A stretch of 64,000 nt of DNA from the NCBI RefSeq assembly GCF_003018235.1, contig NZ_CP027437.1, one strand, 5' to 3'. The notes under the pieces are model-generated. The model did not search any database. It worked only from the letters and a program-made list of their open reading frames with translations, and had not been told where the DNA came from. The stretch comes from Escherichia coli (GTDB taxonomy: Bacteria > Pseudomonadota > Gammaproteobacteria > Enterobacterales > Enterobacteriaceae). Both the position numbers and the translations under genes were made by a program. The stretch's first letter is position 1; each line of letters begins with the position of its first letter. Positions 21,950-43,394 of this stretch are shown here, piece after piece.

Positions 21950-24232
<2,283 letters not shown>

Positions 24233-25913
24233 CCCAGGCACGAGTCTTTGTCATCATTACCTGTGGTTCCAGTGTCAATTGCCCATCAACAAAACTGACA
24301 AAGCCAGAAACCAGACACACGGGGTCGTCTGTTTGTTGCAAAAGCGCCGCCATGCGTTCAACGGCATAAGGCGCGCTGGCTGAGGCTGGCAGTGATAACG
24401 TCAGCAGATTATCTTCACCTTCGCCGCTGATTACCTGCGCATCCAGCGTCTGGCGGCTGCTATCCCAACCGAGCGAAATACACTCAGCGACCGGCAGAAT
24501 AAATAAGTTATCGACCTGATTAAGAGGCCGTATGCAGGCGGGGGGGCGCTGGTGTAAATATTCCCGCAAAGCCACAATGCCCGGCTGGCGTAACGGCGCG
24601 CTCAACATTTGCCAGGCAACAGGCGACAGCGGCACAACGCTGCTTAATCGGTTGCGGGTAGCTAACAGCAGCTCGCCATCGGCACTGCGTTTTGCTGCTT
24701 GTGAAATAATTTGCCCGCCCGCCAGTGCGCCAGCCTGAAAACTAAACAGCCGACGCGTAGCTGCCGGTGAGTTTTCCTGTTCACTTCGCGGCCAACTGCG
24801 CGAAAGGTGCAAAATACTGCCGGTGTCGGGATCGGTAAACCAGATGCGTAAACCATAATGCTCAATATCCTGCCAGCAACGCATACCTAAAGACACCAGC
24901 CGCAGATGATCAAGCTTTGCTTCTCCGGCAATGCCAGAGCCAACGACCGTGCGCCACGGCACAGGAGGAACTTCACCAACACTGTCGCGCCGGGCCATCT
25001 CTTGTGCGCAATTTAATCGACTGTTTAATGCCGCAAGCTGACGTAAGCATTCTCCGGTATGATAGTGGCTGGCGCGGGCGTGGAAGGCATCAACGCTGGC
25101 GCGCAGTTGCCGTAGCGATTCACTCACCCATCGCCAGTTGCAGCGTTCCGCTGCTTGCTGCGCGCGGCTGAAAGCGGCCTCGTAGTGAATAAGCGGCTGG
25201 CTGATGCCGCCCAGCCATAATGCCTGGCTTAGTTGCTGAACATATTGACGACACGTTTTGCCTTCTTCGCTGGCAAACGGATCGTCAGATGATGTGACGT
25301 GTTCGCTGCGCATCTGCCAGATTAAATGAGTCAATTCCGCTTGCTGCGCTTTTGCCTGGACAAAGGCCTGTACTGCCAGTACGACATGTTCGCAAAGTGT
25401 GCCTTCAATACAATCACAACGGGCGAAACGAATGCTGCTACGGGAATAAAAACGCACATCGCTCATCGGTAAGCGGGCAGAGGGAATTTCGCCCGGCGTA
25501 CAGAACAACTCAATGGTGATGCCTTTAGCGACCAGCGCCTGTGCGCGTTTGCGGGTGGTATCGGGCAGGGTAGCCAGTTCTTCCAGCCAGATTGCCGGAT
25601 CCCACTCTTCTTCTTTTTCCGTGGGCTGGACGGTGGCACAAAGTCGTTGATAACTTAACACCAGCATCACGCGATGACGGCACATGCCGCTGGCCCCGCA
25701 GGTGCACTGAGCCTCTTTCAGTGCCTGGCCGTTCGCCAGCTGGGTACGGACACCGTCACTGAAGGTGGCGATTAAAGCGCCGTTCTCATGGCTGATTTCC
25801 GGGACGTTGCCATTTTCCAGTTCCTTAAGGCTGCGCTTAACAAAACCGGCATTGCTTAACGCCGTCAGGGCCTGCGGTGTCAGTTCTAATAATTCCGGAC
25901 GTAGTGAATTCAT
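24233..25913 (-). pseudogene. yehQ: yehQ 5' portion (SWIM zinc-finger protein), truncated by the IS100-like insertion
   Basis: ORF 24213..25937; start ATG complement 25911-25913 overlaps the yehP stop (ATGA); SWIM-type Cys/His motifs CTCGASGMCRHRV and CDCIEGTLCEHV; the last six codons plus stop derive from the IS end. Confidence 0.8.
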
Positions 25914-32034: not shown

Positions 32035-35000
32035 TTAATGGAAAATGACGTCAGGTGCGCTTAACGCCTCACTCAAATCAAACACATCAAGTTCGGCAAA
32101 AGTGACGGATTTATTGTCACGGTACACTCGAAGAGAACGGAAGCTCATTAGCGCTTTGCTATCAACATTGTAGTGGTTAAAACCGGGTGAAAACTTAAGG
32201 ACCAGCCGGTACTCACCCAGGTCATAGACAAATGCGTCCTCATAGCCTGACTCCCAGCCTTTGTATCGCATTCCCATAAGTTGCCCAACGGTAGCGGATT
32301 TACCTTCCCAGCGAGTCAGGCTGTTACTGGTTGACTCGTCAGGTGTGAGCAGCACCGTGCGGCGCGACAACTGGCGAAAAGGCGGCATAATTTCGTAATC
32401 GGCAAAAAGCTGTGCAAATTCACTGCGCATTTCTGCTGTCATTTCTAACGGGTGGGCAATGCCAATCAGAGCATCCGCAGGAAGGTCAATGGGCTCATCC
32501 TGCGCATTGCAGAACTCCCCCTCTGCGGCCACACGAAAGGCGTTGAGTAAACGACGCGGTTCATTTGCCGGATAAACCCCCCATATTAATCGCTGGGTAA
32601 CCAGGCGGGTAAAGGGATGATTAACAAACAGAGAATGAAAATCTGCCAGCGACCAGCGTCGGGTGGTACGTAGGGCAGCTTCAAGACGCGGGAGCAGGTT
32701 TTTGCTCACCTGAGTAGCATCTTTTTTTAGCCCTTTTAGTCGGGCCAGTGCCTCGGGCGCTTTTAGTTGATCGTCATCGGCACGCAACCGGGGAACGCTT
32801 TTCTGGCGAACGTTTTGTTGATCAAAGGTAACCGGGTTGAGGTTTTCATCGAAGCGAACGGTAAACTGCCGGGGACCAAAATCAAAAATCAACGCCTGCG
32901 GATCATCAAGACCCAGTGTTGGGACTAATCTGTCCGCTAACTCTTCCTGGCTTAGCCCGCGATTTTCTGCGACCACCTGAAGAAATTCCGCTGCGTTTTC
33001 ACGTAATGAAGAGGATTTCGCCCGTTGTGATACATGATGCAGCTGTATCAGCGCCATATCATTATTCATCAAGGTAAGTATATTCAGACCAATGACAGCA
33101 CGGGCAGATTTGCCTTCTTGTGGCCAGGCGAGGATCTGTGTCGTCAGATCCCGAGCCGTGCTTTCGTCACCAAAGAGACTTAACGCCAGAAATGCCCAGT
33201 TGTCTTTTGCGGGGGCACCAGCTTGTTGCCACGCAGTGAAGAGATCCCAGGCAAAAGCGGCCAGCGTTTGTGGCTGGCAAAACGTTTTCAGTTGTTCCAG
33301 ACCGCTATAAAAACGTCCGCCCTGGGTAAAGCGCAGCATTTCGCCGATAATTTCCAGAGCGTCATCGGTAACAGGCTGATTATTAGTGATAAGTCGCGGC
33401 CTGGACCACATTGCCGGATGCCAGAAATCAGGGGCTTTTGGAATGCGTGCCGGGTAAATGTCCATTGGACCCTGTTTAAGCAACTGCTCCAGGGCAGGCC
33501 ATACATCAGCGCGTTGCCAGCGGTTTGCCACGGTTTGCAGCAACTCGCCATGTCCCTGTTCGTACAGTAAACGCAGGGCAAGTAATGCGGCTTCGCTATT
33601 ATCGCTGGGTTTGGTAAAGACAAGAGGGATAAGTGCAGTAGCCGTATGTTCCGGCCATTGTAAAATCCACTGGCGAGCCAGATCACGCTGCACCGCGAAA
33701 CGTCGCCAGACGCGGGCAACGGGCAGGGCCAGTTCTGTTGCGCCAAAATTTAAAATTAACGGAAATGTTTCTTTTGGACGATGTAAAAAAGCCAACATCA
33801 GACCTGGTAGCGCATCCAACCCGAGGATACTGAGAAAATAGTCCTCACCCGCGAACAGATGTTTTTTCTCATTGATACGCAGCCAGAAGGTCAAAGCCAT
33901 CTCACGCGGCAACTGTGCCAATAAATACAGGTTCCAGACACTCTTTTCCGGACGATAACGTGAGTAGTTGTCATTTTCCCATATGTTAATTAACGCTTCT
34001 TCGTGACCGCTGCGAAGCGCCTGTTCTGCTAATTGTGCTTCCGGGGAGTTCCAGCCATTCAGGATCTCTTCAACCCGTCCCTGGTAGTAATGCCACTGAA
34101 CAATGAGTGAATTGCGTGCAGCATCCAGTTTTCCGGGGAGTATATAATTCAGAAACAGCCATACATCATCCCCAAAACCCAGTTCCTGTAATACAACTCG
34201 TCCACTTTTTTGTTCCATGCGTTCCGCAAGAGATTCCGTGCTGAAATAACGGGCAGACTCAGTGGCGGCAAGCCTCTCTTGTTCGCCTGGTTGCCAGTAA
34301 ACTTGCGGGGTTAATTCGAGCGGTGCCAAATCAAGACGTGGAGCTGTCATTTTTTTCTTACTACGCCACGGTGGTGAAACGAGGATTTCAGGCAGATTGC
34401 TGTTATCGGTGCCATCAATAACCGGTTTGGGCGGTGCCAATAAATAACTATTCAGTACTGCCCGGGCTTGAGTACTTAACCACTGCATCACCTCTTCTGC
34501 CAGTTGTGTCTGCGATGCCATCAGCGTTTGTAACAACGTACGCCAGTATTCATCTCGAGCTTTTTGCTGGGCAGGCAGCTTTTTGTCTTCGATGATTGGA
34601 TAACCAGGGCGGGCTGGTGGTTCTTTTAACGCCAGCAGTTCTGCCAGTGCCGCGAGCGTCGCGTGGGGGAAGTTTTTACTGTATTTAGCCACACGTTGCA
34701 GGCTGGGTTTGTTTTTATCAGCAACTAACAGCAAGGTGCGGATGACTTGCGGATGGTTAATTTGTACCAGCAGACTGCCGCAATCTTCTTTATGGGCATA
34801 TATCGCGAGGCGCGGAACGACTGCCAGTCCTTGTTCGCGCAAAAGGGCAGCGCAGGCCGCGTAGCCGAAGTGGTTTTCATGCGACATGTAGCTGGCTTCT
34901 CGATCGCTAAATATATCCTGGCTCCAGTAGCGTTCGAGTTTTCTCACCGCTTTGGGGTCAGTAGCAACAACTTTTAACCACTCCTTAGAATGAAAATGAG

Positions 35001-35667
35001 TCCGCGGGCATTCAAGGCTTACCAACTCATTGGCGATTTCTGGTTTTTCGGGGAGGATCAGCGCAATAAAAGGGCGGCGAACTTTGGTTATTCCTGGCAG
35101 TGCGGCAATGAGTTTGTCGGCGCAACGCTGCCAGCAGCTTTCCTCTGCCAGAGAGAGGTGTTTACGCAGTCGGAGATCGAATTCGTTATAGGTTTCTGAG
35201 CGATAACCATAGCCATAGTCCTCGTTCTGATACTGCAATGTGACTACCAGAGGATCACTCTCATAACACCGTGCAATAAACTGGCGTGCAATCACCACCT
35301 CAGTCGCATATTCCAGCCCCTCTTGTTGGACGATTTCGTCGAGCAACTGTTGGCTGTCATTTTGCGCGATACAGGCTAGCGCCGCCATTGTGCGGGCCGG
35401 GACTGAGGGTTTGTGTTCGCCGATCAAGTTGATGGCCTGCGTAATGGCGGACTGCCACTCCAGTGAAAAATTTTCATAACGCCAGACAATGTTTTTTTTC
35501 TTCTCAGCTTTTTGTAGCAATTCATCACCCAGTGTCTGAATGATGCTTTCAGTGATAACAGGCACCGGTTCGCCCGGCCATTTGCGATGACTGAGTGGTG
35601 TTTTGCCTTTTTTATATTTCAGTTCCAGTTGGGCGTTATCCGCCAGCCACGGTAATTCCTTGTCCAT
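32035..35667 (-). CDS. yehI: Giant uncharacterised protein (1210 aa), molR/yehI family (DUF4132-like C-terminal region), lacks the N-terminal WGR domain
   Basis: ORF track 32035..35667; paralogous to the two upstream genes over most of its length. Confidence 0.88.
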   Translation of the reverse strand: MDKELPWLADNAQLELKYKKGKTPLSHRKWPGEPVPVITESIIQTLGDELLQKAEKKKNIVWRYENFSLEWQSAITQAINLIGEHKPSVPARTMAALACIAQNDSQQLLDEIVQQEGLEYATEVVIARQFIARCYESDPLVVTLQYQNEDYGYGYRSETYNEFDLRLRKHLSLAEESCWQRCADKLIAALPGITKVRRPFIALILPEKPEIANELVSLECPRTHFHSKEWLKVVATDPKAVRKLERYWSQDIFSDREASYMSHENHFGYAACAALLREQGLAVVPRLAIYAHKEDCGSLLVQINHPQVIRTLLLVADKNKPSLQRVAKYSKNFPHATLAALAELLALKEPPARPGYPIIEDKKLPAQQKARDEYWRTLLQTLMASQTQLAEEVMQWLSTQARAVLNSYLLAPPKPVIDGTDNSNLPEILVSPPWRSKKKMTAPRLDLAPLELTPQVYWQPGEQERLAATESARYFSTESLAERMEQKSGRVVLQELGFGDDVWLFLNYILPGKLDAARNSLIVQWHYYQGRVEEILNGWNSPEAQLAEQALRSGHEEALINIWENDNYSRYRPEKSVWNLYLLAQLPREMALTFWLRINEKKHLFAGEDYFLSILGLDALPGLMLAFLHRPKETFPLILNFGATELALPVARVWRRFAVQRDLARQWILQWPEHTATALIPLVFTKPSDNSEAALLALRLLYEQGHGELLQTVANRWQRADVWPALEQLLKQGPMDIYPARIPKAPDFWHPAMWSRPRLITNNQPVTDDALEIIGEMLRFTQGGRFYSGLEQLKTFCQPQTLAAFAWDLFTAWQQAGAPAKDNWAFLALSLFGDESTARDLTTQILAWPQEGKSARAVIGLNILTLMNNDMALIQLHHVSQRAKSSSLRENAAEFLQVVAENRGLSQEELADRLVPTLGLDDPQALIFDFGPRQFTVRFDENLNPVTFDQQNVRQKSVPRLRADDDQLKAPEALARLKGLKKDATQVSKNLLPRLEAALRTTRRWSLADFHSLFVNHPFTRLVTQRLIWGVYPANEPRRLLNAFRVAAEGEFCNAQDEPIDLPADALIGIAHPLEMTAEMRSEFAQLFADYEIMPPFRQLSRRTVLLTPDESTSNSLTRWEGKSATVGQLMGMRYKGWESGYEDAFVYDLGEYRLVLKFSPGFNHYNVDSKALMSFRSLRVYRDNKSVTFAELDVFDLSEALSAPDVIFH

Positions 35668-35676
35668 GCTCTTTCC

Positions 35677-38600
35677 TTATTCAAACAGGGCTTCAATATC
35701 GTTAATTAGCTCGCTGGCGGTGATGGCATCGAGTACGGAGAACTGCGCTTCCTGTGTTGAATTACTCCCCCAGCCATAGCTTTCCGCTTTGCCTTCCCAT
35801 AGCCACAGCTTGCTTAAGAGCTGCTCAGCGCTAAGTTCGGCTGGTGACATACCCACCGCAAAACCTTCGTCGATTTCCATGATTAACGACCAGCGACCGA
35901 GAGGTTTGATCATCCAGCCGATCCAGCCTCCATCCTGCGGGGTGCCCTTTATCCAGCCTTTATTCGCCAGCCCCATTACCCGACCGCTCGGGCATTTTCT
36001 GCCTGCCCAGCGGGTCAGTTCGCTGGCATTGCGCTCGGTTTCTGTCAGGGCGTAACTGTTACGGTCGAGCTGGCGGAACGGCGGTAGCAGTTCGTAGTCG
36101 GCAAAAAGCTGCCCAAATGCGGCGGCATCCGTCGGTGATATTTCCAGAACGTGAGGAATACCAACAGAGATATCGCCTTCCGGCAGGGTGAAAAGATCAT
36201 CGTCAGCGGTGCTGTAGCTGTTATCTTCCGCTACCCGGAAACAGGCCAGTAGCTGGTTGTCGGCGCTATAAACGCCCCAAATCAGACGGCGGGTTAAGTG
36301 GCGAACCAGCGGATGCACAACCAGGAAGAGTTGGAAGTTTTCCGGCGACCAGCGGCGGCGCAGGCACATGGCGGATTCAAGCCTTGCCACCTGCTGGGCG
36401 GCGACGGTACGCGCATCTTTTTTCAGCAGTTTGTAGCGGTTAACAGCATCGTTCGCCTGTGATTCATCATCGCTTTTGTTTGGTTTGGGCAGGTCTTTCA
36501 GACGGCTGCCGGAAGCGTCACGCACAAACGGTTTTAAGGTTTCATCAAAGCTGACGGTGAACTGGCGTGGGCCGAAATCCAGCAGCAACGAACCGTTATC
36601 ATCCAGACCGAGATCTGGTGCTAACTGATCTTCAAGCTCCGCCACCGTGAGTTCGCGACTTTCAGCAATGTCGGCAATTTTTTCTTTCGCCCGCTCCTGT
36701 AAAGCTTTGAATTTCAGTTTCTGAGCAATGCCGTTAAGCTGCATCAGAGCGATATCACTACCGATAGCGGCGAGGATATCAAGCCCGACGGTGGCGCGTT
36801 TATGCTGGGATTCACCAGGCCAGGCGCGTATTAATGGCGTCAGTTTGCGGGCGGTGTCATCGTTACCAAGAACGCCTAACGCAGCGAACGCCCAACTCTC
36901 TTTCGACGGCGCGCCCGCAGTCAGCCAGGCGGTAAACAGATCCCAGGCAAATTCAGCCAGTGAGTCGGCGGTACAGGCATCTTTCACCTGCAATAATCCC
37001 GGATACAGTGCCTCTTCCTGAGGGAAGCGGAGCATTTCACCGAGGTGCTGGAGTGCGCTATCGGGCAGTGATTGGGCGTTTGCTTTTAATACCGGGCGCG
37101 TCCAGAGCGATGGCTGATAAAAGGCCGGAAGAGTGGGGATTTTTGTCGGGTGATTATCTAAGGGATCGAGCGCAAGCAGAGCGTTCATCGCGTCTGTTAC
37201 TTCCGGCTGGTTATAACGCCGGGCGATTTCTTGCAGTAATGGCTGATGACCGTTTTCGCTAAGCATACGCAAGGCAGCGCGGGCGTTATCCTGTGCTTCA
37301 CCGGCTTTGCCGAGCGCGGCAGGCAGCAGGCCGGTAATGGCGTGTTCCGGGTATTTCAGCAGCCAGCTACGGGCGTCTTGTCGTAGGGTTTTGAGTTTGT
37401 TGAAGGCGCGGGCAATGAATGGAGCCAATTCGACAGCCGCGAAATATTGTGCCACGGGAAGAGCTTCCTGCGGATAGCGAGATGCTGAGTGGATAAAACC
37501 TGTTAAACCAGCAAGTCGAAGATGCAACATTACTTGTTTTGCACCTGTATGTGGTTCTTTACTAAGGATATTCCACATCTCAATAGCTTTATTTATGGGT
37601 AAAACATGGAGTGAAGAAAGCTTCCATTCGCCCTGATAAGGGGCGTTATAGGACTTAAAAGCATCGATCAAAGTTAAATAATCTTCACGCTGCCAAGCAT
37701 CCAACGCTATTTCTGGAATATCAATATAGCCTCTATGTTTGTTCCAATCCCAGCGGTCGAATCCCAGGGAATTCAGAAAACCTTTTTCTCCCTCTGCTTG
37801 CTGACGAGGTTGCCAATTATGCTGCACTTGAAGTCTTTTGCTTTTTGTTTCATTTATTGTACAGAAAGATTCCAGGGGTAATGGTGCTAAATCCAGCACT
37901 GGAATCGGCGATTTTTTCTTTTTAGCCTGCCACGGCGGTGAGACTAATACGGCAGGCAGCATATCGGCGTTCGCATAAACTGAAGGTTGTGTTAGTTGTT
38001 GCTGGCATGACTTAAGAACGGTAACTGTCGGGGCAGATAGCCAGGAGATCACCCCTTCTACTAATGTTGGTTGTGAGATAAGCATCGTCATTAGCATCAT
38101 GCGCCAGCGCTTTTCATCTTTTTGTGCCAGAAGTTCTGCTAATGCCGCCAGCGCTGCATGTGGAAAGCGAACGAAAGCCTTTGTCATGCGATCGTGGCAA
38201 CGCTTTCCCTGCTCACTTGCATGGATAAGTAGTGTAAGTGCTTGCGGGTGGTTGATATGCATCAACACTTCCCCACATGTGTCACCAGCAGCGTAAGGGG
38301 CAAAACGGGCCAACGCAGCGACACCTTGCTCCTTGAGTACTGTCGCACACCAGATTTTACCGCCGTAATAATCATCAAATACCTGCCCTGGCTGTCCTGG
38401 ATAGTATTACCCCAGTTCTGCCAATACCTGCTCGTCGGTGGTCGTCAGTTTTAGCCATTCCAGCGCATATACCCCTTTTTGTCCGCAAAGATGTCTGGCA
38501 ATCTCATGAGCTACTTCTGGTTTTTCCGGCAACAATAGTGCGACCAGCGGCTGGTTCCAGGCGGGCATGTTTCCGAGAGCGGCAATCAGTTTGTCGGCGC

Positions 38601-39435
38601 AGCGCTGCCATACATCGTCATTTGCAAGTGAGAGATGCTTACGCAGGCGCATTTCAACCGAAGCGAAGCGTGACAGATAGTCAGGCTGCTTGTTATCCGG
38701 GGTAAAAGTAATGAGGTGGGCATCATAATTCCAGTCAAATCGGATGAATTGCAATGCGATGACAACCTCAGTGGCATATTCCAGACCACCTTCCTGGACA
38801 ATTTGATCCATTAACTCTTCGTGATCGTTACGATTGAAGCCTTGCTCCAGCGCAACCAGTACCGCCAGAACCATCGGTAGTAGTGTGGTGCTAATCGGCG
38901 AGTCGATAAGGCCCACTGCTTGTGTAATCGCCTGCTGCCAGTCCAGTGAACAGGTGCTGTAATTGAAGGTGATCACCTTTTTAAAACGCCGGTGAGTATT
39001 CGCGGCGACGGAGCGTAGCAGGGTTAATTCATTCTCCTTTGGCACAGGATCGCCAGGCCAGCGTCGATGACTTAGTGTGGTTGGCGCAACCTCTGTCGGT
39101 AAAATGATTTGGGCGTCGTCTGCCAGCCAGGGGAGGTGGTCTCCAGTCAATGCTGGTTTGTCTTGTGGCAAAGGGGCTATTTCAGGGCATTCGATAACCT
39201 GGGTGGGTACAGATGTCGGTGTCATCACGGATACTTCTTCTACGTAGCCCTTTTTTGTTTTCTCCGCAATCAGCTTCAGTTCCGCTTTTTCCGCCGCCGC
39301 AGTATCTGCAAAGCTTTTTACCTGACTTTGCCCGTTAGTGCCAACTTTACCCCAGGTTATATGCAGTTCGTTTCTCTGCTGTTCCACCGCCCAGAATTTA
39401 TGTGATTTTTCGTCCTGATAAATATAGGTTTTCAT
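35677..39435 (-). pseudogene. molR/yehI-family paralog with N-terminal WGR domain, interrupted by a single in-frame TAA (complement of 38407-38409)
   Basis: ORFs 38407..39435 (342 aa) and 35677..38313 (878 aa) are in the same frame with no other stop between them; about 1252 codons if read through. Confidence 0.7.
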
Positions 39436-39447
39436 TGCTAAATCCTT

Positions 39448-42400
39448 TTAATCAAACAGTGATTCAATGTCGTTAATCAGCTCGCTGGCGGTGATGTCGT
39501 CGAGCACGGAGAAAGTGGGTGAGGATTGTTTACCATAGCGATCATAAGGGGCGGTGATTTTTACGCTTTCGACAGGCAGCAGGTCGCTATACCCCGTTTC
39601 GCCATAAATTAATGAAAAAGGTTCTGTTTCAAGTTCGAGAGCACCATAAGGGGTAAATTTGCGCATCGCATAGACGCTGCCGCTTTCTTCCAGACGTTGC
39701 CAGCCTCTGCGTTCCAGCCCGACAATGCGTCCGGCCTGGCAGAGACGTCCGTTCCAGCGTGACAATTCATGGACATTACGTTCGTTATCAGCAAGGTGGT
39801 AACTACCACGTTCGAGCTGTTGGAAAGGGGGAAGCAGTTCGTAATCAACGTAAATTTGCCTGAATGCAGCGGCGGATTCAGGGGGGATTTCCAGCACATG
39901 CGGTATACCGATGTTTCCTGCTGGCAGCGTGAATAACTCATCCTGCGCATCGCTGTAAGTGCTGTCTTCTGCCACGCGAAAACAGGTGATAAGAGCGTTT
40001 TCATCGTTATAAACCCCCCATAACAGCCGTCGGGTTAAGTGACGTACCAGCGGATGCTCCACCAGAAACAGGCGGAACTGCTCTGCCGTCCAGCGTCTGC
40101 GCTGGCACATAGCCTGTTCCAGACGATCAATCTGCTGGCTGGCTATGGCGCGTACATCTTTTTTCAACTGTTTGAAGAGATTAACCGCGTCAGTTGCCTG
40201 AGTTTTTTCATCGCTCTGGTTTGGTTTGGGCAAATCTTTCAGGACTTTGCCGTTTGCGTCGCGCACTACAGGTTTTAAAGTTTCGTTAAAACCAACGGTA
40301 AATTGACGTGGGCCGAAATCCAGTGTCAGCGAGCCACTGCTATCAAGCCCTAAATCCGGTGCCAGGCGGTCTTCCAGTTCAGCCATAGTCAGCCCACGGT
40401 TTTCAGCGACCATGTTGATTTTGTCGCTGGCATGTTCCTGCAATGCGGCGAATTTAATTTTTTGCGCAATGCCATTAAGCAGCATCAGCGCAATATCACT
40501 ACCGATACTGGCTAACACATCCAGCCCGTAAACCGCGCGTTTATGCTGGGATTCACCCGGCCAGGCGCGGATGAGCGGGGTTAGTTTACGCGCGGTGTCG
40601 TCATTGCCTAGAATCCCCAGCGAGGTAAATGCCCAGTTTTCTTTTGCGGGTGCGCCAGCTTCTGTCCATGCCGTGTAGAGATCCCAGCCAAAGTCAGCCA
40701 GTGATTCGCGGGTGAAGGTCTCTTTGATGATCGCCAGCCCAGCGTAGGAGGTAATGTCGCGTGGAAAGCTCAACATTGTGCCGAGGTGGCGCATAGCGTC
40801 ATCTGGCAGAGGCAGGTTGTTACTTTTAAGCCGAGGTCTGTGCCATAAGGTGAACTGATAAAAGCCGGGCAGTGGGGCGATTTTTGCAGGATATTCTTCC
40901 AGTGGGTCGCTATCAAATAATGTTGCCAGCGCAGCTAAAACATCAGGTTGATTATATCCTTGGGCGATTTCCTCAATCGTTTCTCGCTGGTTTAATTTCA
41001 CTAGCAGGAGGAGTGCCTGGCGGGAATATTCCCGATTTTGGCACGGTTTGCCCAGCGCCAAAGGTAGTAGCCCGGCGGCGGCATGGCGCGGGTTATTTGC
41101 CAGCCAATTAACGGCATCCTTGTAACCCATTTTTTTCTGTAACCGCTGCGCCATTGGTAAGGCTAGGTCACTGGCCCCAATAAAGAGGGTGAATATCCAC
41201 AGTCGTTGATGATCTCGTTGCAAGCAGGTCATAAACGCAGGAATGGCCGTACTGCCAAAAATCCCCAGAATCTCTTTCTCACCTGAATATCGCTCCTCAA
41301 TGATTATTTGGTTGAGAAATGAAATCGCCTGTTGTCCCGGTAAGTAACAAAGCGCAGATAGATTCCAGCTTTTGTTGGCATTGTTGTGATATTTCGCAAA
41401 CTCAACTTTTAGTGCTGGAAAATCAAAGCGCAACAAGGCATCAACAGCGCTTTGCGGTATATATTTTTTTTCATGTAAGTCATCTTCGCAATGCAGCCAT
41501 TCATTAAAACCTAATTGCCAAAGGATTTGTTGTTCTGGTGTAAAAGGAATGAAAGATGTCTCCCAGCTTTCTTTTTCAATTAGTGGCAGTTCGGTAAATA
41601 AGGTTTGCTGTGATGCCTGATATTGCGCGATTTCATAGAATCTGGATATGTCAGTATGACTGATTAACTCTGTAATTCCTGGTGTGATATCCGTGACGGC
41701 AGGGATGGGAAGTACCGGCAAATCAAATACGGGTATTACATTCTTTTTCTTATTTATTACCCACGGTGGAGCGACAAACAGCTCTGGCAACATATCCGCA
41801 GTGGCATATTCACATTCTTCAGCGACTGACTGCGGACGACATTCAGATAAGATGCCAGCGGCTTTGGCATTAACCCAGGGAATGACGTCGCATACTAACT
41901 CTGGCGTGATGGTAATCAGTTTGATAAGTGCGTTGCGCCACTGTGCATCTTCATGTATTGCCAGCAAAGTTGCATAAGCGGCAATAGCCGCAGCGGGATG
42001 TTTTTGGCAGGCTTTGCTTAAGTATTCCAGGTGCTTTTTCTTGCCATTTACACCGAGGATCAGAATCTGAATCGCATCCGGGTGATTCGTTTTCCATAGC
42101 CATTTGACAAGATTTTCAGTCTCGCTGTTGCGCTCGAAAAGATAAGTGGGATTGTCAGAATGCTCTTCCGTAAACTCAAGAAGGATCTGGCTTACACCCC
42201 GAATTCCATTATTCGCCAGCAACATTGCCAGATAAGCGCGAAAATTACGAAAATCACGATACAACGGTGGGAAGTCGTATTTTTCCACTGTAGTCAGAGC
42301 AGTATCATCGGTTATCACCAGTCTTAACCAGGTCATCGCCGGAACGTTTTGATCTGCATAATGTAGCGCCATAGCATTGGCGATATCCGGGCGTTCAGGG

Positions 42401-43254
42401 ATCAGTAACGCCGCAAAAGGTTGCCGTGCTGGGGATAGCGAGGGAATAGCCGCGAGTACCTTATCTACACAGCGTTGCCACTCATCTTCTGAAGCGAGTG
42501 AAAGATGATGACATAGACGTTGATGCCAGTTCGGTAGCGATTCTGCTTTGAGATCAGGGGGAATGATGGTGGTGACGTCGGCTTTTACTGGTTTATATCT
42601 AAGTTGAAGAGCGAGAAGGGCAATTTCAACGGCACTTTCCAGACCACAGCGAATGACTAAGTCATCGACCAGTTCATCTGCAGAGTAAGAGTTCCAGAAA
42701 CTCCAGAGCAATGCTGCATCAGATTGCACACTCCCTGTCTGTTGATTACCCTGAACTCGCATTTGTAACTCAGCAAAAGCCTGCTGCCAGTTTTCTGGAT
42801 AAGAACGGTAATTGTTGGCGGGATCATATGCTCTGGTGTTATTCGCGATGAGCTGCCATATTTGACCATCTTTGTGCAGATAATTGATCTCTCTGGGGCG
42901 AGAGCGATGAGGAAAAGCAAATCGATTAATATCGTCAGTTAGCCGAATGACCGCATCATCAGCCAGCCAGGGGCGTTGGTTTTTACTCTCAGGGGAAGTT
43001 TCAACTTCAGGAGTGGCTTTGGTAATGGGGGGGATATGCACGTTTGCTGAAGCATTTTCCACATAGCCTTTTTTCGTTTTCTCCGCGATAAGATTCAGTT
43101 TCGCTTTTTCCGCTGCTGCAACATCAGCAAAATTTTTTACCTGGCTTTGCCCTTGGGTACCAACTTTTCCCCAGCTGATATGCAACTCGTTTCCCTGCTG
43201 CTCCACCGCCCAGAATTTATGTGATTTTTCGTCCTGATAGATATAACTCTTCAT
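39448..43254 (-). CDS. molR: Giant WGR-domain protein (1268 aa), molR family; appears intact
   Basis: ORF track; N-terminus MKSYIYQDEKSHKFWAVEQQGNELHISWGKVGTQGQ (WGR-like). The K-12 counterpart is remembered as a pseudogene. Confidence 0.8.
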   Translation of the reverse strand: MKSYIYQDEKSHKFWAVEQQGNELHISWGKVGTQGQSQVKNFADVAAAEKAKLNLIAEKTKKGYVENASANVHIPPITKATPEVETSPESKNQRPWLADDAVIRLTDDINRFAFPHRSRPREINYLHKDGQIWQLIANNTRAYDPANNYRSYPENWQQAFAELQMRVQGNQQTGSVQSDAALLWSFWNSYSADELVDDLVIRCGLESAVEIALLALQLRYKPVKADVTTIIPPDLKAESLPNWHQRLCHHLSLASEDEWQRCVDKVLAAIPSLSPARQPFAALLIPERPDIANAMALHYADQNVPAMTWLRLVITDDTALTTVEKYDFPPLYRDFRNFRAYLAMLLANNGIRGVSQILLEFTEEHSDNPTYLFERNSETENLVKWLWKTNHPDAIQILILGVNGKKKHLEYLSKACQKHPAAAIAAYATLLAIHEDAQWRNALIKLITITPELVCDVIPWVNAKAAGILSECRPQSVAEECEYATADMLPELFVAPPWVINKKKNVIPVFDLPVLPIPAVTDITPGITELISHTDISRFYEIAQYQASQQTLFTELPLIEKESWETSFIPFTPEQQILWQLGFNEWLHCEDDLHEKKYIPQSAVDALLRFDFPALKVEFAKYHNNANKSWNLSALCYLPGQQAISFLNQIIIEERYSGEKEILGIFGSTAIPAFMTCLQRDHQRLWIFTLFIGASDLALPMAQRLQKKMGYKDAVNWLANNPRHAAAGLLPLALGKPCQNREYSRQALLLLVKLNQRETIEEIAQGYNQPDVLAALATLFDSDPLEEYPAKIAPLPGFYQFTLWHRPRLKSNNLPLPDDAMRHLGTMLSFPRDITSYAGLAIIKETFTRESLADFGWDLYTAWTEAGAPAKENWAFTSLGILGNDDTARKLTPLIRAWPGESQHKRAVYGLDVLASIGSDIALMLLNGIAQKIKFAALQEHASDKINMVAENRGLTMAELEDRLAPDLGLDSSGSLTLDFGPRQFTVGFNETLKPVVRDANGKVLKDLPKPNQSDEKTQATDAVNLFKQLKKDVRAIASQQIDRLEQAMCQRRRWTAEQFRLFLVEHPLVRHLTRRLLWGVYNDENALITCFRVAEDSTYSDAQDELFTLPAGNIGIPHVLEIPPESAAAFRQIYVDYELLPPFQQLERGSYHLADNERNVHELSRWNGRLCQAGRIVGLERRGWQRLEESGSVYAMRKFTPYGALELETEPFSLIYGETGYSDLLPVESVKITAPYDRYGKQSSPTFSVLDDITASELINDIESLFD

Positions 43255-43394
43255 CCGCGTTCCCTGTATTTATATCCAGTTATAAGCGGATGCTAGCAGT
43301 TAATGAAAAAAATTAAGAGCGTTGAACAAACAAGAAAACAACTTTAGGAATTTATAAAGAAAAGGCGCTGTCGATGCAGCGCCTTGAAGGGGGA

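Follow-up and report, generated by a model that had tools for sequence, protein, structure and literature searches.

Organization of the locus

The window, by which we mean the whole 64-kb stretch of Escherichia coli DNA analysed here, contains a region ordered metG, three tandem paralogs, yehK and yehLMPQ, as placed by megablast against 5426 complete E. coli genomes. Annotations of four E. coli genomes, K-12 among them, show the same context. All three paralogs lie on the minus strand. Paralog 1 (39448–43254; 1268 aa, WGR and DUF4132 domains) and paralog 3, which is yehI (32035–35667; 1210 aa, DUF4132, naturally without WGR), are intact, and the middle paralog (35677–39435) lies between them, with a 12-nt spacer on the side of paralog 1 and a 9-nt spacer before yehI. 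No promoter-like or terminator-like site was found on the minus strand between the three paralogs, and a terminator-like hairpin follows metG (43362–43385, minus strand). Given such short spacers, the lack of intervening sites and the hairpin upstream, the three genes are probably co-transcribed as one transcription unit.

The middle paralog is read in a single minus-strand frame of 1252 codons with exactly one internal stop, a TAA at codon 343 (38409–38407, local sequence CTG GGG TAA TAC TAT). The initial annotation had proposed that two minus-strand open reading frames in the program-made list, 38407–39435 (342 aa, ATG start) and 35677–38313 (878 aa, TTG start), share a frame interrupted only by this TAA. 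Our translation agrees: the two starts are 1122 nt apart (39435 − 38313, or 374 × 3), and the 909 sense codons that follow the stop contain no second lesion. The codons beyond the stop also continue to align with the paralogs, as had been noted from the INHPQ motif; the alignment of the three paralog proteins is unbroken across the stop and past it, including this motif (INHPQ/TNHPD), and in the column of the stop, paralog 1 has K and paralog 3 (YehI) has R. With only one stop in 1252 codons, and with colinearity both to two paralogs and to hundreds of intact orthologues of 1252 aa, a chance pattern of open reading frames is ruled out.

The stop separates the two recognizable domains of the protein. 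Pfam was run separately on the 342-aa N-terminal fragment (38410–39435, minus strand), which is predicted to be translated, and on the remainder (35677–38406, minus strand), which comprises 909 sense codons and the natural stop. WGR (PF05406) occupies residues 7–67 of the fragment (window 39235–39417; E = 2.8e-18), and DUF4132 (PF13569) occupies residues 633–818 of the remainder (window 35953–36510; E = 6.9e-51, with the full model covered), placing them on opposite sides of the TAA. A full HMMER scan of 1.84 billion representative proteins returned 5946 relatives at E ≤ 1e-3, and most of the top matches are colinear proteins of 1100–1300 aa. With both domains present, colinearity with relatives of approximately 1200–1300 aa and the expected locus context, the middle paralog is assigned on sequence grounds to the WGR + DUF4132 (MolR/YehI) family. 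Many relatives in the family-wide comparison lack WGR or the region that follows it, and we propose a layout of WGR, a variable accessory module (residues ~100–480), a conserved core starting at a VSPPW motif, and DUF4132.

Searches of PADLOC, NCBIfam and the PDB yield no clue to function. None of the four proteins or fragments matched a PADLOC model at E ≤ 0.01, which places them outside the defence systems of PADLOC-DB; NCBIfam gave a single below-cutoff similarity, in the WGR region, to a Leptospira family; and the sole relative in a PDB sequence search, 2ra8, covers residues 2–69, the WGR domain. A literature search on the yehI and yehL genes returned a genome announcement only.

At codon 343 a single base separates the window from intact alleles

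Intact versions of the middle paralog are common in E. coli. At least 80% of the gene is covered in 689 of the 5426 complete genomes, and intact 1252-aa alleles form a cluster of 132 members, with single sequences present on 652, 59, 38 and fewer contigs. The ST131 gene encodes an intact 1253-aa ‘DUF4132 domain-containing protein’ (WP_000860751.1). This protein and the 1252-aa alleles P0040–P0048 occupy the orthologous position between paralog 1 and yehI and share the length and domain order of the window gene, but they carry AAA (Lys) at codon 343 and form one full-length polypeptide, whereas the window carries TAA (38407–38409, minus strand).

At the DNA level, the middle paralog of the window and its closest allele are 98% identical. 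The initial annotation had predicted that orthologues would show a sense codon one substitution away from TAA, and AAA is what we found in the closest complete-genome allele (L001), in the ST131 allele (L002) and in all 14 of the closest complete genomes. Within a 63-nt stretch that includes the site, T in place of A (window 38409, coding strand) is the sole difference from L001. A 301-nt query centred on the stop matched none of the 5426 complete genomes at 100%, and the best 14 matched at 99.7%, that is, with one mismatch. When the T in this query was reverted to A, the same 14 genomes rose to 100.0%, and the farther matches listed gained approximately 0.3–0.4%. By this 301-nt comparison, TAA at codon 343 is absent from all 5426 complete E. 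coli genomes.

The substitution pattern of the gene indicates that the lesion is young. Between the window and its closest intact allele, dN/dS is 0.12 over the whole gene and 0.106 for the part that follows the stop; the comparison with the ST131 allele gives 0.22. The value of 0.106 shows that the divergence downstream of the stop arose under purifying selection, and since no second lesion has accumulated in the 909 codons, a recent mutation is the reading that fits both. An exact-protein look-up among 15 billion proteins did not find the window allele with K343 restored. The immediate intact ancestor is therefore unsampled, and the age of the mutation is bounded only.

These comparisons also bear on how the locus is annotated and how it varies. 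In the genome that carries the closest allele (strain AHM8C212RI, L001 6778–10536), PGAP gives two ‘incomplete’ partial pseudogenes even though no stop interrupts its 1252 codons; elsewhere this allele type is recorded as an intact ‘WGR and DUF4132 domain-containing protein’, which amounts to an annotation inconsistency. Between the window (35677–39435) and the ST131 allele (L002 6765–10526), dS is approximately 0.31 with 426 differing alignment columns, an allelic divergence that, by this measure, is very deep for E. coli. In nearly all genomes, identity in the metG–apbC region beside the paralogs reaches 95% or more (best 99.1%), and the middle paralog of O157:H7 strain TR01 is a further mosaic allele that matches the window at both ends only. 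By these alignments, the paralog locus is hypervariable and recombinogenic.

The stop is inherited within a shallow clone

The remaining 861 codons from an in-frame ATG at 38262, the start chosen by gene callers, correspond to a predicted product (P0009) that is found on seven contigs. We examined five Logan contigs assembled from different SRA runs, namely SRR22548703, SRR11357309, SRR18191694, SRR21721971 and SRR29299487, and all five contain the TAA. Each is 99.96–99.97% identical to the window over 7.8 kb, lying two to three SNPs away. Private SNPs distinguish them from the window and from each other, so that they represent separate isolates. An NCBI draft assembly (GCA_019876205.1) has the same TAA and is 99.993% identical to the window over 13.8 kb. 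Exact look-up of the 342-aa product returned no encoding contig on record. The TAA is seen only in genomes that are 0–3 SNPs from the window over 7.8–13.8 kb; it is real and is inherited within one very shallow clone.

A sequencing error had been one of three explanations offered for the stop in the initial annotation. A miscalled base in the source genome, with a true A and an intact gene, has one point in its favour, that the window differs from the closest alleles by one base; yet the same T recurs in at least six further assemblies made from separate runs, including the five sequence-distinct Logan assemblies and the NCBI draft, which excludes an error confined to the source genome. An artefact shared through one DNA preparation is unlikely, as the assemblies carry private SNPs, and we give this explanation a negligible probability. 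A recent nonsense mutation, the second option, gains from the same data: orthologues have AAA, and the TAA is limited to near-identical clone-mates.

Internal restart, functional split and readthrough

The third option was a gene made as two polypeptides through internal re-initiation. Several in-frame codons downstream of the stop could serve as starts. These are TTG 38313 (codon 375), GTG 38268, TTG 38265, ATG 38262 (38260–38262, minus strand, codon 392), with a weak GGGGAAG element upstream, and ATG 38187. The first four lie 32–49 codons after the stop, with Shine–Dalgarno-like elements that are weak or poorly spaced. Such a distance is too great for efficient termination–reinitiation. No new start signal was found in the 301 nt around the site, which are identical to intact alleles except for the stop base, and the residues at codons 375 and 390–392 are unchanged in those alleles; the candidate starts are therefore not newly evolved. 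No promoter-like site was found on the minus strand between the stop and the candidate restarts. The 878-aa product that would start at TTG 38313 is absent from the collection of 15 billion proteins by exact-protein look-up.

Among the best 150 of the 5946 relatives, none starts at the position of the stop, and those aligned to the start of the post-stop part have at least 186 residues N-terminal to it. Shorter relatives that appear complete begin at the VSPPW motif, which lies around residue 487 in the E. coli protein, or have WGR fused directly there; P0120 and P0190 are examples of WGR-less family members that start at the motif. The stop thus falls within a stretch, residues ~100–480, that behaves like a separable accessory module. 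YehI and the other WGR-less or short relatives share the conserved C-terminal core and DUF4132 with the post-stop part of the window gene, but each of them is naturally one polypeptide with a start of its own.

Could the 342-aa WGR fragment and a core of roughly 861–878 aa, started at TTG 38313 or ATG 38262, together retain activity? The downstream frame is fully open, an in-frame ATG with a weak purine-rich element upstream lies 49 codons past the stop and is used by gene callers to predict the 861-aa P0009, and this product would hold the complete conserved core. WGR-less relatives occur naturally (YehI, P0120 and P0190), so a C-terminal fragment could in principle fold and act, and the stop falls inside the separable accessory module. 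The split is nevertheless confined to one near-clonal group, with every other allele unsplit; within the 301 nt around the site, no base change has made or improved a ribosome-binding site; the available starts are distant from the stop and badly served by Shine–Dalgarno-like elements; and none of the best 150 representatives begins where the post-stop part begins. A natural split gene would be expected to show the split in diverged relatives, together with a dedicated ribosome-binding site and start, and no diverged allele with the stop was found. We consider a functional split unlikely, and the proposal of two polypeptides made by re-initiation finds no support in a start-site change or in a distribution beyond one near-clonal group. 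Nor did we encounter what would have spoken against a recent mutation, many strains sharing the stop along with independent start signals: the 301 nt match intact alleles at all but one base. Decoding of the TAA as sense, for example by an ochre suppressor tRNA, would yield a full-length protein, and the sole point in favour of such programmed readthrough or suppression is an indirect one, the open frame after the stop. The stop occurs in no other allele, and this column reads K or R in all other alleles and in the paralogs. The stop context is TAA-T, reportedly the most efficient termination signal in E. coli. The 64-kb window contains no tRNA gene and thus no local suppressor. We regard readthrough as extremely improbable.

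Other breaks near codons 343–345

The middle paralog is also interrupted close to this position in ST131. In sublineage L1a of ST131 clade C2, the transposon TnMB1860 (IS26/blaCTX-M-15) has been reported to disrupt the ‘DUF4132 region’ (PMC9334617; also PMC7406970). Our comparison places an IS26-bounded region with blaCTX-M-15, blaOXA-1 and aac(6′)-Ib-cr directly after codon 344 of the ST131 middle paralog, 3 nt from the position of the TAA (L009/L010 9001 and L014 ~613, equivalent to window 38404). The junctions read GGGGAAATAC|GGCACTG and CAGTGCC|GAAATACTATCC. They are present in 47 complete genomes, and the flank is of the ST131 type in 47 of 47; the insertion is therefore one ancestral event in one ST131 sublineage (PMC9334617). 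TnMB1860 strikes the same paralog at nearly the same place as the window TAA, but there a transposon has inserted into another allele, in another lineage, and the case is already in the literature, whereas the window has a point mutation.

Two truncated proteins from draft assemblies end at the same place. P0003 (342 aa) is encoded on 20 draft contigs of another clone, with the closest intact allele type; the one P0003 contig retrieved, from GCA_023342575.1, stops with the A that opens codon 343 (L003 7027, equivalent to window 38409). Look-ups of C-terminal partial proteins that would begin at codons 341–346, made to explain the P0003 contig ends, found none. P0005 (344 aa) ends after codon 344. 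An IS26 junction in a non-ST131 allele was considered as its source and was rejected for complete genomes, where all 47 junctions have the ST131-type flank.

Codons 343–345 might accordingly be read as a hotspot or selected site, at which inactivating the middle paralog or uncoupling WGR is advantageous. The transposon after codon 344 in 47 complete genomes, the 20 assemblies whose P0003 contigs break off at the opening base of codon 343, and the end of P0005 after codon 344 all point that way. However, the IS26 event is a single insertion, the contig ends count as assembly breaks rather than as demonstrated lesions, and the other lesions in the family are elsewhere (in K-12, codon 275 and around nt 2850; in O157, a frameshift), a scatter that fits random decay. 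We judge a hotspot or selected site to be very unlikely. A related and more speculative view, to which we attach a low probability, is that the clone might express a WGR-less core (861 aa from ATG 38262, like YehI) together with a free WGR fragment, and that the breaks at codons 343–345 mark a tolerated or favoured cut point. If this were true, the clone would amount to a natural experiment in domain uncoupling, in a family with links to a MoxR-AAA/VWA/SWIM module.

Probable recent decay of the middle paralog

We consider it highly probable that the TAA is a recent, clone-specific A-to-T nonsense mutation that has produced a young pseudogene and marks early decay of the yeh module. A single transversion changed Lys343 (AAA) to an ochre stop in the middle one of three tandem MolR/YehI-family genes. 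Translation would then end after 342 residues, giving a fragment with WGR and part of the accessory helical module, and would leave the following 909 codons, with the conserved core and DUF4132, largely untranslated. The C-terminal product is in all likelihood lost, and it is this predicted loss of the core and DUF4132 that makes the gene a young pseudogene. This is gene decay of an ordinary and recent kind, at a locus already known for it, and not a designed split.

The mutation may also be felt by the next gene. Through Rho-dependent polarity, an untranslated stretch of 2.7 kb could lower the expression of yehI, which is closely coupled to the middle paralog. A scan of the C/G ratio shows a modest C-rich, G-poor stretch approximately 350–400 nt after the stop, and polarity on yehI is plausible.

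K-12 provides an older counterpart of this break. Its molR locus (yehF, b2115, and the yehH pseudogene, b4499) belongs to the same WGR + DUF4132 family and fills the same slot between metG and yehI, and there too an in-frame stop leaves a WGR-bearing coding sequence, YehF (274 aa), comparable to the N-terminal fragment of the window, with the rest a pseudogene. The two differ in that K-12 has one gene in the slot and the window two, in the codon of the stop (275 versus 343) and in an extra frameshift near nt 2850 of the K-12 gene. Judged by these differences, the K-12 break is an older, independent decay event. The C-terminal 315 residues of the K-12 gene (L012 4475–8270) are 95.6% identical to the middle paralog of the window and the first 939 only 66%, which suggests that the K-12 slot holds a hybrid or a different allele. 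In O157:H7 strain TR01 (L011 6148–9133 and 22687–23562), the annotation gives a frameshift in the middle paralog, and the nearby rcnA has an internal stop.

The TAA is one more independent inactivation at a repeatedly decaying E. coli locus, alongside the K-12 molR pseudogene, the O157 frameshift and the ST131 TnMB1860 insertion. In practice, a single pseudogene with an internal stop, not two genes, is the appropriate annotation for the 342-aa and 861/878-aa open reading frames, and the SNP could act as a clone-specific marker. The significance beyond annotation is small.

A second lesion lies in the same module. An IS21-family element of 1954 bp (22279–24232, minus strand), with terminal inverted repeats and a 5-bp target duplication (CTGGG), encodes IstA (23124–24146, 340 aa) and IstB (22345–23127, 260 aa). 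It splits yehQ (21953–25913) at approximately codon 561 of 667, leaving a truncated minus-strand gene of 566 aa (24213–25913; 561 native residues and 5 from the end of the element) and a 3′ remnant (21953–22276). Two lesions in the yeh module of one clone fit relaxed selection on the whole system, and relaxed selection with early decay of the entire module in this clone would be the most economical reading. Together, the TAA and the yehQ insertion suggest that the yeh WGR/DUF4132–MoxR–VWA–SWIM module is dispensable in the clone. The truncated 566-aa YehQ and the TAA are both present in Logan run SRR18191694.
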